A DNA stretch of 64,000 nucleotides from Octopus vulgaris (GCA_951406725.2 OX597816.1:69936001-70000000), one strand, 5' to 3'. Shown: positions 13,608 through 44,371, counted from the first letter of the stretch. The notes: generated from the sequence alone by a model not told the origin. Translations and numbers: made by a program.

Positions 13608-13859
13608 ATTACCCGAAAGGTAGGGGAAATACAGCTTTATATTTAAGAGATGAGGGATTATGTACATTATTAACATTTAACGGGTATTTGTCCTCATCTT
13701 GTTTGTTGTTGCCATATCTTTTCGGCTGATATAACCTCCAGCCTTCATCAAGGCTGGAGGGTATATCAGCCAGCCTGGAGGTTATATCAGCCGGAACGTT
13801 GTGGTAACAACAAACAAGATGAGGACAAATATCCGTCAAATGTAAATAATGTAAATAAT
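13608..13859 (-). mobile_element. Short PLE-type palindrome with truncated hammerhead
   Basis: Arms ~13657-13746 and ~13752-13859. Minus strand reads TGATGA-A-GGCTG...CAGCC-GAAA; the plus arm has a duplicated stem II. Confidence 0.7.
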
Positions 13860-15027
13860 ATAGGTAGTGGAAAGTCTAACAAAATACAAGGACATTGAAT
13901 ATGAAATTTTCAAGTTGTGGGGCATGGTGGGTAAAATAACACCAGTTGTAATTGAGCAATAGGAAGGATTTTAAAAATTATGAAAAGAATCATGAACGGC
14001 AAAACAGGGCCCACAACACTGCGCACTGCCCTCCAAGATAACTCTACCTGGAACAGTTCATATCTTACAAAAACTTTATGAATTCACTGAAACTAAGAGA
14101 CTATTCAATAAAAATTGTTCCAATTGTAATTCGCACGCTGCAATCTCTCTTTACAATATGCACCTAATAACAAGACAACTCGCGCAACATAGACTGTACA
14201 AGATTGAGGCAACGTTACATACACACCACGCTCAACAGAGAAAACAGTAGTATAACATGACTCAATAAACAAAATATAGCGATGCAGTACGCCAACAGAA
14301 GGAATCTATATTTCCCGTCTTCATAAAAATAAGAATACGAACGTGGCCCGAGTGATGCATCAGAAATTCGCATAAAAGTAACAGAAGAAAAGCGAAATTA
14401 TAACAGTTATAATTTGGAAACTTCTTATTAGAAATAATTGACAAGATAATTGAAGAAAACCTGATGAAAATTATTTTAATTTATATTTCAATATTTGATT
14501 TTGTCGAATCCATTTATTACTTTCAGCATCCTTACTTATTCAAATTCTATTATATATGAATAATTTATTTGGAATAATCGATATTTCTGGCGCTTCTTAA
14601 GATTCTCTTATTTATTTATTTATTTATTTATTTATTTATTTATTTATTCATTTATTCATTCATTTATTATTTATTTGTTTGTTTATTGTGCGTTTCTGTG
14701 TTGATGTTGTCCTGGTGGTTTTTGATATTGCTCAAGCTGTTGTTTTTCAAAATGGATCTCGAAAATGTATCAATTCGTCCAACAAGTCTGAGGCGGGCGC
14801 GTGCACGTATGTGTGTATGGATGTGTATGTATGTACGAACGTATGTATATGTAGATAAGTAGATAGGTGTATGTATATATGTATATGTATACTTATATAT
14901 ATGTATGTATGTATGTATGTATGTATGTATGTATGAATGTATGTATATACGTACGTATGTTTATGTATATATGCATATATGTGTATGTATATTTATTAAT
15001 ATATGTATGCAAGTATATATATATATT

Positions 15028-15690
15028 TATTCTTTTATTCTTGTATTGTTTTAGTCATTTGACTGCGGCCATACTGGGGCACCGCCTTTACTCGTGCAAA
15101 TCAACCAAACATCTTATATTTTGTAAGCCTAGTACTTCTATCGGTCTCTTTTGCCGAACCGCTAAGTTACGGGGACGTAAACACACCAGCATCGGTTGTC
15201 AAACGATGTTGCAGAGACAAAAACAGACTCACAAACATATACACACATACATACATATATATATATTTATCTATATGTATATACATAAATATATATATAT
15301 ATATATATATATATATATATATATATATATATATATATATATGCGTGTGTGTGCGTATATGTTTGTGTGTGTATATAAGCTCTGGGGCCGATTTCCTCGA
15401 CTAAAGACGGTGCTGAAAGATGCAAAAGAATAAAAGAATATATATATATACATAAAAGAGCATATATATATTAATAAATATACATACTCAAAAATACACA
15501 TATACATAAACATACGTTCGTACATACATACACATCCATCGGGCTTCTTCCAGTTTAAGTCTACCAAGTCCTCTCACAAAGCTTTGGTCAGCCCGACCGA
15601 GGCTATAGTAGAAGCTCCAAGGAGCCATGCCGTGGGACTGAACCCGGGGCCATGTGGCTGGTAACCAAGCTACTTACCACTCAGTCACTC
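15028..15690 (-). mobile_element. SINE family A with expanded internal microsatellite and an inserted fragment
   Basis: Head at ~15540-15690 and tail at ~15028-15230 are reverse complements of family A. Confidence 0.8.
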
Positions 15691-17069
15691 AGTTTTGTCT
15701 GTTACAGAAGTTTAGAAAATTGATAATATGTACGATTTTCTAGGAAAATATAAACTACGCATTAAAAACAAGTAACCAGAATCATGACGTCATAGCAATA
15801 AATTTATGCTTCAACTTTGACGAACCAATATGGGAAGTAATGTGGTGAAAACCCGTAGCGAGAGCTCCTGGCGAGCACATATTGTTACCTGTGTTCGATT
15901 CCTGATTGCAAATGTTTCCTTACATTCCTACATCTAATGGTATTGGCAAACAAATGAATAACAAATTATTCTATTTCTCGATCGCACATCATATTCACTT
16001 AAAACTGAAATCAATACGTTAGCTATGGATGGCGCTGTATTTTTATTTATTCATTTATATATTTACTATATTATCGTTTAAGATCATCATCATCATCATT
16101 ATTATTATTATTATTATTATTATTATTATTATTATATTATTATTATTATTATTATTATTATTATTATTATTATTATTATTATTATTATTATTATTATTAT
16201 TATTATTATTTATACTTTTTGCTCGTAAGGAACTATAGCGAATCCTTCATGAAAACATTATTTTTGATAATGATGAAAGCGTCAACGTTTTTTTTTCTTC
16301 TTTGCTCTGTTTTATAGCTTAATTTTAATTTTAAGCTTTTTTCAAACGAGTGTACACAACATGTAGGGTTGAGATGATATTTTAATTCAGATATAATTTA
16401 CATTCCATTTCTTTGAAGATTCTGTTAGAAAAATATGCATTACTAAAAAAAAAACACATTCGTTTCTGCTTACTTCCATTTCGCATTTGTCTAGGCAAAT
16501 TGTCATTAATGTTTTCTGATCATATTCAGTTAAAATTCCTTACTATGCACTTTATACCAAACGCTGCTACTGATGCAAAAACGAAAACCTCAAAACAACT
16601 ATATATTTCAAAATATACATATATAAACAGCTGCACCTGTGTATAGACGCAGGCGTGGATGAGTGGTTAGAACCTTGTTTCCCAATGATATTGTCCCAGG
16701 CTCACTCCCACTGCATTGTAGGCAATTGTCTTTTACTATAGTCTGAAGTTAACCAAAGCCTTCTGAGCGGATTTACTTGACAGAAATAAGCTCGTTGTAT
16801 GTGTGCATGTATATTATATATATATATATATATATATATATATATATATATATATATATATATATATATATATATATATATATATATATATATATATATT
16901 ATTTATTTATTTATTTATTTATTTATGTATTTATATTAAGGGCATTACTATACATAAATGCCTCACGCTAGGAGGGACTCCTAAAATCAGAACTACCATA
17001 ATAAACACATTGTACGGAACGCGAGGGAGTGCAACACTCGAAGCGACCCTTTTAAAAACAGATTCAGCC

Positions 17070-17126
17070 GCAGATCATGTGATTTCATAATTAGTGCAAA
17101 AAAAGGCACTTTTTAATCGTCAGTGC
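17070..17126 (-). ncRNA. Type I hammerhead ribozyme motif, canonical core, in a ~400-bp (TA)n-flanked insert (16935-17340)
   Basis: Minus strand: GCA-CTGACGA-TTAAAAAGTGCC...GCACTAATTAT-GAAA-TCACATGA-TC-TGC; stem III ATCA/TGAT, predicted cleavage after AUC. Confidence 0.75.
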
Positions 17127-17427
17127 AAGCTTAGTCAAGACACATGAAAATGAACAAAAATCAACATACAAGACAAACACTAAATGTATCCAACATAGTA
17201 CATAGATATGTTCACACATATATCGATGTAAGAGGCGGGCTTTTCGAATTTTTCTGAAACTTCAGATTTTTCAATATGCTAGACCACTGGTTTTAAATTG
17301 ATAATAATCAAATTAATATTCAATTTCTTTTATTTTATTTTAAATATATATAAATATATATATATATATATATATATATATATATATATATATATATATA
17401 TATATACATATATATGTGTGTGTGTAT

Positions 17428-42412: not shown

Positions 42413-42509
42413 ACTACAGTTGCTGCTGCCTAAGCAATCTGTTTGACTGCGTAGTTACTGTTACTGGATTCCTCGCGTTACTGTCGGAACCAGCCCAACG
42501 CGACTGTCA

Positions 42510-43490
42510 TAATAATAATGATAATGATGATCATGATCATGATGATAATAATAATAATAACAACAACAACAACAAGAATAATAACATCAATAATAATAAT
42601 CATAATAATGATAAAAATAATATTACTAATTATAACAACAACTACAACGATAATAATGATAATAAAAGCATTAATAACAATAACAACAGCAAAAATAATA
42701 ATAATGATAATAATAATATCGATAATAATAATATTAATAATGATCATAATAATAATAATAGTAACAACATCAATAATAATAACCATTCTAATATTAATAA
42801 TAATAATAATAATAATAATAATAATATTAATAATAATAATTAAAAATAATAATAATATTTAATAATAATAATAATAATAATAATAATAATAATAATAATA
42901 ATAATTAAAAATAATAATAATATTTAATAATAATAATAATAATAATAATAATAATAATAATAATAATAATAATTAAAAATAATAATAATATTTAATAATA
43001 ATAATAATAATAATAATAATAATAATAATAATATTTAATAATAATAATAATAATAATAATAATAATAATAATAATAATAATAATAACATAGGCAGAAATT
43101 CACGTTGGTGCTCATGGGAACTGCCCATATCCTATGTAAATTAATGTCTCCGTAATTTCCAATTTTAAAACAAACACATAATTTACTTACGTTTTCTTAA
43201 AACACTCTCTAGAAGAATACTATTTACAAAACCAAATATATTGCACTCTCGGCATAACACCAACTTGAACTTCTAACTTTGTAGTCTCTTGAGGTCTCCG
43301 GGTGAGACTTGAAGTCAACTTCTACAAATACAAAGCAAAACTCAACATATAATACTAATAATAATAATAATAATAATAATAATAATAATAATAATAATAA
43401 TAATAATAATAATAATAATAATAACAATAATAATAATAATAATAATAATAATAATAATAATAATAATAATAATAATAATAATAATAATAA
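42510..43490 (+). repeat. (AAT)n array with higher-order repeats, containing an R4/Dong-like 3' end (~43090-43350)
   Basis: AATTAAAAATAATAATAATATTTAAT repeated three times; LVLMGTAHIL frame followed by an (AAT)n tail. Confidence 0.8.
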
Positions 43491-43498
43491 TATTTATC

Positions 43499-43812
43499 GC
43501 AGCGTGGAAAGTGTTTATAAGCCATTTAAGAAACACACAAAAACCGTTAGATTCACTTCAACATTTAAATTTAATTCGCCAAAATATTTTCGTCGTTTTG
43601 AGACCGCGACCTGCAGCACGGAATTTTGTTAGTGAACAGGTCGCGGTCCCAAAGCGACAAAAATATTTTGACAAATTAAATTTAAATGTTGAAATGAATC
43701 TAACGGTTTTTGTGTCTCTTAAATGGTTTATAAACACCTTCCACGCTGCAATTATTTTCGTTCCAGCACGCGATCTCAGATCAGGTCACTTGGTATGAAA
43801 GTATATCTCCGT
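43499..43812 (+). mobile_element. Short PLE-type palindrome, G3-C8 hammerhead family, copy 1 (decayed)
   Basis: Arms 43499-43612 and 43637-43749, tail to 43812; GTGAACA core present but G12 is mutated. Confidence 0.75.
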
Positions 43813-44043
43813 AAATACTTTATTTCCCAATCCAAAAATTCAAGAAGATAAGCCCCTCCAATATATACAAACTTCACAATCACAAAAACTGTAAACCACC
43901 GCAAAACTTTAAAACACAAAAAGAGGAAAAATTTTACAAATCGAAAAAAAAAACAATCCGAGGATTCAAAAGTTCAGCGATGTAAATAAATATATATATA
44001 TATATATATATATATATATATATATATATATATATATATATAT

Positions 44044-44371
44044 ACGGAGATGTACTCGCATAGCAAGTAATTTGATCTGAGATCGTATGCTGAAATGAAA
44101 ACAATTGCAGCGTGGAAGGTGTTTATAAGCCATTTAAGAAACACACAAAAGCCGTTCGATTCACTTCAACATTTAAGTTTAATTTGTCAAAATATTTTCG
44201 TCGCTAAAATCCGCGACCTGTTCACTGTCAGCACGGATTTTTGTCAGTGAACAGGTCGCGGATTTTAGCGACGAAAATATTTTGACAAATTAAACTTAAA
44301 TGTTGAAGTGAATCGAACGGCTTTTGTGTGTTTCTTAAATGGCTTATAAACACCTTCCACGCTGCAATTGT
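44044..44371. mobile_element. Short PLE-type palindrome, G3-C8 hammerhead family, copy 2 (127-bp perfect arms 44101-44227 and 44245-44371; tail 44044-44100)
   Basis: Arms read as exact reverse complements by eye; 17-nt spacer. Confidence 0.85.
44240..44289 (+). ncRNA. Minimal type I hammerhead-like motif, G3-C8 core variant
   Basis: TTTGTCA-GTGAACA-G-GTCGC(GGATTTTA)GCGAC-GAAA-ATAT-T-T-TGACAAA: 7-bp stem I, 5-bp stem II, palindromic stem III. Confidence 0.75.

Follow-up and report, generated by a model that had tools for sequence, protein, structure and literature searches.

Short palindromes folding near a hammerhead core in Octopus vulgaris DNA are 3′ ends of Penelope-like retroelements

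The window analyzed here is a stretch of 64,000 nucleotides from Octopus vulgaris (GCA_951406725.2 OX597816.1:69936001-70000000); positions are counted from its first letter. The initial annotation had described four short palindromes, from three families, that fold near or inside a hammerhead core. All four exist, and each fold lies at most 20 nt from the minimal core. BLAST of the window placed their centers near 13748, 27158.5, 43624 and 44236 (the BLAST center of the first, 13758, is displaced by a 21-nt tandem piece), with bit scores of 197-442 and arms of about 88-137 nt that are 89-98% alike; ten shuffled windows gave 0-4 weak inverted matches each (counts only). The arms and related features are:

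13604..13751, minus strand: family A copy 1, tailed arm, beginning at U4 of the core, without the stem I 5′ strand
13751..13859, plus strand: family A copy 1, untailed arm, beginning directly past the core box
26960..27158, minus strand: family C, tailed arm with U3-A8 hammerhead, core 27144-27138
27160..27261, plus strand: family C, untailed arm with U3-A8 hammerhead, core at 27173
43496..43613, minus strand: family B copy 1, inverted untailed arm, inner end at C8 of the core
43612..43812, plus strand: family B copy 1, whole short unit, beginning at the 5′ pile position 43612 (see below)
43625-43675, plus strand: family B copy 1, G3-C8 hammerhead, predicted cut after 43668
44044..44227, minus strand: family B copy 2, tailed inverted arm whose inner end lies 2 nt upstream of G3
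44229..44372, plus strand: family B copy 2, spacer-bearing untailed arm with intact G3-C8 minimal hammerhead, core 44247
52746..52810, plus strand: family A solo fragment in an AAT microsatellite, beginning at U4 of the core

The tailed arm of family A runs from U4 of the core through stem II and GAAA to a tail of about 50 nt that ends near 13604-13608, and in its partner a 21-nt partial tandem of stem II (13751-13771) precedes the arm proper. The tailed arm of family C has a one-sided extension of about 96 nt. In family B copy 1 the ATG is at 43723, the tail is bracketed by two 3′ piles of contig ends (43753 and 43814), and the outer end of the inverted arm coincides with the first of these. 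Outer ends are unequal by the tail in all four palindromes, the tails of the window families measuring 50-96 nt. The spacer and tail end common to the two B copies, and the opening of the 52745 fragment with TGATGA (at 52746), are as had been described. An inverted partner and a microsatellite or AT-rich target were found for the window elements (the surroundings of the 13608 element are AT-rich DNA, not microsatellite), and the 3′ flanks of family B contigs are AT-rich. An assembly artefact is ruled out by arm differences of up to 11%, by the one-sided tails and by the recurrence of family ends in four sequencing runs, which carry three organism labels.

In the motif scan, whose null with palindromic stem III required is 0.14 matches per shuffle, the copy at 44247 has every feature of a minimal type I hammerhead, namely pairing between positions 3 and 8, a bulge after A9, G10.1-C11.1, GAAA, a palindromic stem III, a stem II of 5 bp and a stem I of 7-8 bp. 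Its fold has z = −2.6. Families B and C carry a hammerhead near the 3′ end; both copies of family A have core box, stem II and GAAA and are missing position 3 and the stem I 5′ strand. At least one ribozyme is incomplete in three of the four window palindromes. Rfam gave no hammerhead among the 150 of 170 matches listed.

Counted from core position 3, the inner ends of the arms lie at +1 and about +6 in the 13608 element, where the fold is the core box itself (13745-13750), at −14 and −13 in the 26960 element (U3-A8 core at 27173), at +5 and −18 to −20 in the 43499 element (G3-C8 core at 43632), and at −2 and −18 in the 44044 element (core at 44247). In family A, three of three inner ends lie within the core box, 1-7 nt 5′ of stem II. 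The predicted cut site is not the break point of any of the four window elements. Cleavage is rejected as the origin of their folds, for 8 of 8 arms retain stem II and GAAA, both of which lie 5′ of the cut.

The list of four was a selected one. Two further hammerhead palindromes, with folds far from the cores, had been omitted from it:

9795..11208, no strand assigned: longer palindromic insertion with 396-nt arms 99% alike, hammerheads at 9936 (minus strand) and 11067 (plus strand)
5340..9720, no strand assigned: 5′-truncated Penelope-like element plus inverted copy, U3-A8 cores at 5423 (minus strand) and 9597 (plus strand)

The 9795 element has a 54-nt stem II domain and inner ends 254 and 876 nt upstream of its cores. 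The 5340 element contains an ORF end encoding an RT C-terminus and GIY-YIG (8147-7428, minus strand), an inverted copy (8148-9677), a one-sided extension to about 9720, and inner ends that precede the cores by 2,724 and 1,449 nt. Two other palindromes, at 35546 and 35815, had no hammerhead in the motif scans. The masked window holds one palindrome with arms of about 60 nt, none with arms of 25-55 nt, and besides these two self-complementary stretches of 21-24 nt.

The four palindromes are the 3′ ends of Penelope-like retroelements (PLEs). In family B the tail of each copy is the start of a PLE ORF:

43723..43812, plus strand: PLE ORF start, B copy 1, first 30 codons, 23 of 30 residues matching the P0024 N-terminus (by eye)
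44133-44044, minus strand: PLE ORF start, B copy 2, first 30 codons, 25 of 30 residues matching P0024

The tail peptide matches the N-terminus of P0020/P0024, and this N-terminus matches those of five proteins of 815-1116 amino acids (E 1e-11 to 1e-16 in a 29-sequence set). These long proteins (P0026 and others) score against a PLE RT/GIY-YIG profile built from PLE proteins bearing PF00078/PF01541. Family B is linked through this chain of similarity, from tail peptide to relatives, to a parent ORF with a telomerase-like RT plus a GIY-YIG at the C-terminus. Pfam gave neither domain above cut-off in the seven long relatives tested and no name for P0002 or P0020; the Atlas had no useful match for P0020 and placed P0025 in eukaryotic clusters with PF28514 on 16-41% of members. 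The link between P0025 and P0003 was made by profile search because pairwise BLAST was weak (E 0.03), and the N-termini of the P0003 group match no window tail. A one-sided tail between two fixed 3′ ends is present in family B, and one-sided extensions in A and C. Families A and C and the 9795 element likewise have frames that are still open where their tails end; these may be chance.

Family B alone was followed beyond the window, by mapping contigs from 4 of 24 listed runs to one 271-nt family B stretch; the tables hold the best-supported 24 of 844 loose-end rows and 15 of 42 joints. The 5′ loose ends pile up at 43612, about 20 nt upstream of the core, with 107, 123, 135 and 75 contigs in the four runs, and the best 24 of 844 rows contain no other 5′ pile of similar size. 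The mapping reference carries no natural sequence upstream of 43612, so that the pile gathers all copies ending at or beyond this position; that most of them stop there is concluded from a single argument, namely that the letters beyond are mixed and AT-rich, with an agreement of 0.40-0.45 vs. 0.59-0.75 where family sequence continues. The main 5′ pile looks like a fixed end of the element or of a putative RNA. The two 3′ piles, 61 nt apart, recur in all four runs at 43753 (36-53 contigs) and 43814 (53-68); untailed B arms in the window stop at the first, tailed arms at the second. The median loose-end length is 42-62 nt at the 5′ pile and 190-255 nt at the 3′ piles; the shorter 5′ loose ends could reflect repeated or inverted sequence upstream.

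Many distinct junctions occur in family B contigs (best 15 of 42 joints), and the depth across a junction like that of the 43499 element is 0.04-0.5% of arm depth. Ten strand-change joints are visible (best 15 of 42 joints). The inner end falls at 43618-43640 in nine of them, for which uniformly distributed ends would give P about 2.5e-5. In six, the outer end falls at 43670-43678, which is 2-10 nt 3′ of the predicted cut; if ends were uniform, the best 9-nt window would have P about 0.003, a value that includes the visibility limit (the reference hides joints with outer ends at 43612-43660). Several family B joints end at +1 to +8. Two of the strand-change joints, 43622/43678 and 43627/43673, lie symmetrically around stem I, and 5 nt in them match either side. 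Partial tandem joints depart from the 3′ base of stem II both in family A and in family B (43657/43658 to 43615). In run X4 a one-base insertion at 43613 reaches a depth of 2,484, as compared with about 50 for single copies. Two high-depth joints in the same run may be head-to-tail arrays. Exact-pattern scans for families A and B yielded no match in viral contigs, metagenome contigs and prokaryote genomes.

Over 115 aligned columns the variants common to arms follow the locus at 8 sites and the side at none. The 43499 arms differ at 11 of the 115 columns, yet have older-type variants in common; the 44044 arms do not differ at all. The proposal that each copy's arms carry private variants therefore holds as far as grouping by locus is concerned, but AAATTT/AAGTTT is not private: the share of this variant (place 43681) in family depth is 11-22% in three runs but about 0.02% in the remaining one, and it is a subfamily marker. 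At 43499 the spacer-bearing arm carries the tail; at 44044 it is the opposite arm that does. Because arms group by locus and the tail swaps sides, the palindromes were likely built anew at each insertion, as the initial annotation had suggested; the low junction depth and the many junctions agree with this.

MITEs are short non-autonomous DNA transposons. The palindromes resemble them in being short, palindromic, high in copy number and located at AT-rich sites, but the copied unit is the arm rather than the palindrome, the outer ends are unequal, and the partner protein is an RT/GIY-YIG protein rather than a transposase. Amplification of a whole palindrome with one center was not found, nor were equal TIRs with a fixed target-site duplication, no consistent duplication being visible by eye among microsatellites that obscure it. 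A MITE-like mode of spread, as originally envisaged, is not supported, given a junction depth below 1%, many junctions and the change of tail side.

We consider it somewhat probable that the palindromes are two short PLE 3′ copies joined in one insertion, and that they fold near the hammerhead since the RNA begins 15-20 nt upstream of it. An arm consists of the hammerhead and the downstream end, which in family B is the PLE ORF start with its two fixed 3′ ends. The PLE protein would initiate reverse transcription internally at the two 3′ sites, as deduced from Frangieh et al. (2024, PMC11167929). On an RNA starting in the pseudo-LTR just upstream of the hammerhead (a promoter within the PLE pseudo-LTR is mentioned in PMC2377424), the cDNA would run off after 140-200 nt, and run-off at the RNA 5′ end would thus produce the fixed end at 43612. 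To this, a second cDNA for which the other target strand or a snap-back served as primer would be joined via 1-4 nt of microhomology. Both arms would stem from one active subfamily and so have its variants in common. A tail on the shorter arm, as in the 44044 and 5340 elements, is impossible from a self-copying cDNA; hence two cDNAs would have been used there. There has been no large-scale amplification of the junctions as a unit, and both family C arms likewise begin 13-14 nt upstream of the core. An RNA start at −20 does not account for the family A inner ends in the core box or the B joints at +1 to +8. Also counting against it is Drosophila virilis, in which the ribozyme is described as located past an intron and about 120 nt downstream from the transcription start (PMC2377424 and PMC4209133), a distance exceeding that proposed for family B.

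Alternatively, the ribozyme helices could set the ends if, on a longer RNA, the cDNA formed a hairpin after copying stem II or stem I and then dropped off or self-primed. The family A inner ends next to stem II, the cluster of nine of ten visible inner ends (best 15 of 42 joints), the two joints symmetric about stem I and the partial tandem joints at the base of stem II in two families would all fit. We nevertheless regard this as unlikely. The largest 5′ pile is outside all helices, 20 nt upstream of G3; inner ends close to the core are equally what a fixed 5′ end would produce; in the 9795 and 5340 elements copying continued for 254-2,724 nt beyond the ribozymes; and self-priming cannot place a tail on the shorter arm. 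Self-cleavage, which is compatible with the joining of two run-off copies, might provide a second class of templates whose short arm ends 3′ of the cut. The six of ten visible outer ends found there (best 15 of 42 joints) point to it, the G3-C8 core retains all other minimal-hammerhead features, and an engineered C3G/G8C core is described as cleaving partly (PMC11167929). The positions of these outer ends also make up the 3′ strand of stem I, where snap-back or micro-inversion fits too; the joints are the best 15 of 42, with outer ends at 43612-43660 hidden by the reference; the cut is not a break point in any of the four window elements; in no run do the best six rows include a 5′ loose-end pile at 43669; and cleavage is reported in PMC11167929 as dispensable in vitro, without RNA reads ending at the cut. 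Cleaved templates are thus quite improbable, although as a minority class the joints just 3′ of the cut keep a direct role of the ribozyme open. The initial view that the ribozyme region determines where reverse transcription stops or switches template is accordingly borne out only in part: family B ends pile up near the core, and a minority of joints are found immediately 3′ of the cut. The main pile, however, is located 20 nt upstream of the core, the four elements do not break at the cut, and in two other families longer insertions have folds distant from it.

Random 5′ truncation combined with a hammerhead about 100 nt from the 3′ end could mimic the pattern if short core-bearing palindromes had been picked, and the omission of the 9795 and 5340 elements and of the palindromes at 35546 and 35815 from the original list speaks for it. 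For family B this explanation is weakened by the sharp pile at 43612 in four runs with no comparable 5′ pile among the best-supported rows; moreover, random truncation should favor shorter arms, and yet arms of 25-55 nt are absent from the masked window and arms of about 60 nt are represented by one palindrome. We judge it very unlikely. Likewise very unlikely is that a pre-formed palindrome spread whole or that gene conversion homogenized the arms after insertion. The few joined forms at multi-copy depth in run X4 (the 43613 insertion) and the sameness of the 44044 arms would suit either. Opposed to both are the tails on opposite arms relative to the spacer, the different and rare junctions of the two B copies, and the 43499 arms, which differ at a tenth of their columns and whose common variants are subfamily markers.

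Known PLE architecture, an inverted 5′-truncated copy plus tail (PMC8557442), explains most of the anatomy and had not been named in the initial annotation. EN+ PLEs (Penelope/Poseidon, Neptune, Nematis) are described with a truncated inverted partner, a tail at one end, a hammerhead near the 3′ end and insertion into AT-rich microsatellites (Craig et al., 2021, PMC8557442; Schostak et al., 2008, PMC2377424), all as in the window. The window differs in partners of 90-200 nt, in tails of 50-96 nt rather than 30-40 nt, and in the one dominant 5′ end of family B about 20 nt upstream of the core; a fixed 5′ end of that kind was not found in the available text of these two papers. In the PAc Poseidon of Anolis carolinensis two internal RT starts bracket the tail and both strands are extended, the two 3′ ends lying within the ORF start, the hammerhead at the pseudo-LTR/ORF junction and the targets being AT-rich (Frangieh et al., 2024, PMC11167929). 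Family B is alike in these ends, junction and targets, but its ATG is 91 nt after G3 rather than at stem II, its 3′ ends are at ORF nt 31 and 90, and its G3-C8 core is a natural covariant, of which the accessible part of that paper has only an engineered double mutant.

Minimal type I hammerheads, as described from metazoan PLEs by Cervera and de la Pena (2014, PMC4209133), likewise have the bulge after A9, G10.1-C11.1, the palindromic stem III and a U3-A8 variant. Motif pairs 100-700 bp apart on opposite strands are reported there, beside mostly solo motifs from truncated PLEs; as far as the text available goes, G3-C8 is absent from its variants and breakpoints are not mapped relative to the core. 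Non-LTR retrozymes are also non-coding hammerhead units from PLE pseudo-LTRs (bioRxiv 10.64898/2026.07.22.740005), but are described as head-to-tail tandems; the window has inverted pairs and no head-to-tail units each with a whole hammerhead. Among the sources available in part, we found no paper mapping PLE inversion points to the hammerhead.

The questions in play are the 5′ insertion ends of PLEs, the origin of the inverted partner and the role of the hammerhead, whose function is called unclear in PMC8557442. They can be approached by counting in a family with one dominant 5′ end, two 3′ ends, many different junctions and thousands of copies: the tail side discriminates between one and two cDNAs, and cleavage in vivo would be indicated by a peak at the cut site. 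It is conceivable, albeit doubtful, that the mini-copies are a record of the germ-line RNA ends that were copied, namely the transcript start at −20 and in addition the ribozyme cut site. If so, the junctions would record in vivo cleavage by a natural G3-C8 hammerhead as well as two-cDNA insertion on both strands, and genome assemblies alone would suffice to tell how the ribozyme functions in endonuclease-bearing PLEs. In practical terms, such hairpins will be misannotated by programs that search for MITEs and microRNAs; Rfam returned sub-threshold microRNA matches at 27114 and 44192.

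The window is AT-rich, microsatellite-rich DNA of animal type, and four short palindromes in it had been described in the initial annotation as folding back in or near a hammerhead core. They proved to be real: comparison of the window with itself recovered all four (arm identity 89-98%, 197-442 bits; ten shuffles gave 0-4 matches each above 34 bits), and their inner arm ends lie between -20 and about +6, counted from core position 3 (G3 in family B). Also in agreement with that description are the common spacer, the common tail end and the point at which the 52745 fragment, a solo piece of family A, begins.

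Palindromes and partial tandems of the window
13608, family A palindrome: inner arm ends at +1 and about +6 from core position 3
26960, family C palindrome: inner arm ends at -14 and -13
43499, family B palindrome, copy 1: inner arm ends at +5 and -18 to -20
44044, family B palindrome, copy 2: inner arm ends at -2 and -18
9795-11208, palindrome with 396-nt arms, 99% alike: inner ends 254 and 876 nt upstream of the cores
5340-9720, 4.4-kb palindrome: inner ends 1,449 and 2,724 nt upstream of the cores
35463-35740 and 35815-36220, two further palindromes at TA-rich sites
13751-13792 (family A) and joints 43657/43658 to 43615 (family B), partial tandems of two families that break off at the stem II 3' base and resume from the element 5' end

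Rfam named no hammerhead among the best 150 of 170 matches listed for the window. In a descriptor scan with a background of 0.78 matches per shuffle, minimal type I hammerheads came up at 44247 (G3-C8), 27173 (U3-A8) and 9936/11067 (C3-G8, with a long stem II), as did a match at 41536 that is likely due to chance. A relaxed scan added cores at 43632, 44225, 5423/9597 and 52745 and, weakly, at 13751; neither scan scored a hammerhead in the palindromes at 35546 and 35815, one of which has 60-nt arms and a one-sided extension, the other being old (72% alike). Stem II and GAAA are retained in all eight arms of the four short palindromes, and thus no arm begins at the predicted cut. The family B palindromes (43496-44372) stand tail to tail, 230 nt apart, in a larger inverted repeat 83% alike. 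Their stem I 5' strand (43625-43634, 44240-44249) is a splice-acceptor-like pyrimidine run ending in CAG; in Drosophila virilis an intron end coincides with helix I (PMC4209133, excerpt).

Contigs of four of the 24 listed sequencing runs (three organism labels), 5,862 to 9,491 per run, were placed on 43590-43860 at 80% likeness, and three piles of loose ends recurred in all four. The 5' pile, at 43612, precedes G3 by 20 nt (107, 123, 135 and 75 contigs, pooling copies that end at or run past 43612, the reference having no natural sequence upstream of it); the loose parts are short (median 42-62 nt), with a letter agreement of 0.40-0.45. The 3' piles are at 43753 (44, 53, 53 and 36 contigs), where the untailed family B arms of the window stop, and at 43814 (53, 68, 55 and 55), where the tailed arms stop. 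The remaining listed rows are family sequence interrupted by indels (agreement 0.59-0.75). Since the smallest of the best 24 of 844 rows hold only 19-32 contigs per run, 43612 is likely without rival as a single 5' end. The piles thus identify the common spacer as the 5' end of family B.

The tailed family B arms carry a 30-codon open frame running from ATG to the extreme end. Five proteins were found with a profile of the two tail peptides (E up to 0.001): protein P0020, matched over residues 1-24, and four repetitive or unrelated-looking ones that were set aside. Protein P0024 opens in the same way (by eye, 25 and 23 of the 30 residues are identical to those of the peptides), and its stretch 15-161 aligns with the N-terminal ends of five proteins (815-1116 aa; E 1e-11 to 1e-16) in a set of 29. 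A profile of the reverse transcriptase (RT) and GIY-YIG of Penelope-like retroelements (PLEs) scores all 29 long relatives of protein P0025; Pfam names neither domain above cut-off in the seven long relatives tested. Two proteins related to the family B tail are, by source labels, gene models of Octopus sinensis and O. vulgaris, which makes an octopus the likely host. The chain from tail peptide through P0024 to the PLE relatives identifies family B, as judged from sequence, as an endonuclease-bearing PLE's 3' end, a hammerhead followed by the ORF start as tail; for families A and C a PLE origin is suggested by the anatomy they share with family B rather than by a parent ORF. This layout matches that described for Poseidon of Anolis carolinensis (PAc), which has two RT start sites inside the ORF start with the tail between them (PMC11167929, excerpt).

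These fixed ends, with arms paired by locus (see below), most likely reflect insertion of two cDNAs made from an RNA starting just upstream of the hammerhead. For transcript start, priming and joining we infer that the PLE protein would begin cDNA at either of two internal sites, that the cDNA would run off the template's end after 140-200 nt, and that a second cDNA would join the first head to head via 1-4 nt of microhomology. Fold junctions show such microhomology (1-4 nt), and two insertions, the one at 44044 and the 5340 element, have the tail on the shorter arm, which requires two cDNAs because a self-copying cDNA cannot gain a tail never present. In excerpts from the literature, a promoter was demonstrated inside the pseudo-LTR of D. 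virilis Penelope (PMC2377424), and for PAc nicking and extension of both strands are described and a dimer predicted (PMC11167929). The ribozyme helices may instead halt or redirect RT, which better fits the family A ends inside the core box. Hammerhead cleavage may also yield a second class of template. Among the best 15 of 42 joints, ten are fold-backs (7 change strand, 3 were re-mapped from the mirrored reference part; 4 skips and 1 tandem were excluded), with the inner end at 43618-43640 in nine. Six have an outer end within 43670-43678, which lies 2-10 nt to the 3' side of the cut predicted to follow 43668. Both clusters (P about 2.5e-5 and 0.003, for uniform ends and a visibility limit) rank as leads, since the rows are the best-supported ones, the null model is rough and a joint whose two ends both fall in 43612-43660 would be hidden. 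The outer cluster also falls on the stem I 3' strand, and two joints show exact symmetry around that stem, so that snap-back is equally compatible; nor is there a loose-end pile at the cut among the best rows listed for family B in the four runs.

Alternatively, a palindrome may have been amplified as a unit, or its arms evened out by gene conversion. Family B arms cluster by locus (8 columns) and not by side (0) over 115 columns, as had been proposed, with 11 differences between the arms at 43499 and none at 44044. Sharing of variants by locus thus stood, but one "private" variant, at 43681, accounts for 11%, 22% and 16% of the depth in all runs but one (0.02% there) and is therefore a subfamily marker. 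Relative to the spacer, the 43499 copy carries its tail on the right arm and the 44044 copy on the left, which argues against a single master palindrome unless the centre flipped, and depth over the 43499-like junction is 0.04-0.5% of arm depth, roughly 5-90 copy equivalents. In favor of amplification, one run has a few joined forms at multi-copy depth, behind which may be limited amplification or repeated formation at the same microhomology. Two joined forms of run X4 (43680 to 43624; 43743 to 43624) are ~60 and ~30 times as deep as a single copy and may represent retrozyme-like tandem arrays, with hammerhead units of 60 nt and 126 nt. Near-core folding itself may be an artefact of selection: the four listed palindromes are real, but the list omitted the 9795 and 5340 elements, which fold far from their cores, and the two palindromes at 35546 and 35815. 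With the core ~100 nt from the 3' end, picking short core-bearing palindromes partly forces the result, which is why family B was also followed outside the window, in the contigs above.

The 5340-9720 element is a 5'-truncated PLE with a microsatellite-rich 3' region and a U3-A8 hammerhead, and its inverted partner is 96% alike; its ORF C-terminal part (protein P0002; 8147-7428, minus strand; RT C-terminus and GIY-YIG) is 75% identical to a 772-aa protein bearing both domains. The palindrome architecture is already known: according to excerpts, standard PLE anatomy includes an inverted partner that is 5'-truncated and a tail at one end only (PMC8557442; PMC2377424), and minimal hammerheads in opposite-strand pairs 100-700 bp apart were reported in 2014 (PMC4209133). 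In the literature listings and excerpts covered, no report was found of a natural G3-C8 hammerhead with a dominant 5' end a short way upstream, or of a joint cluster at the cut site.

The 9795-11208 insertion is young; the stem II domain of its hammerhead spans 54 nt, and the insertion's spacer contains a 101-nt tandem pair (10562-10762). Elsewhere, a 556-nt repeat forms an inverted pair 97% alike (47547-48821), both copies within AAT microsatellite, and an open frame of 448 codons that includes a zf-RVT domain (58611-59957, minus strand) is probably the terminal part of a non-LTR retrotransposon. A dispersed 300-nt repeat family (13006-13345; relatives at 32281, 58193, 61658, 61843 and 63094; 84-88% alike) is presumably a SINE.
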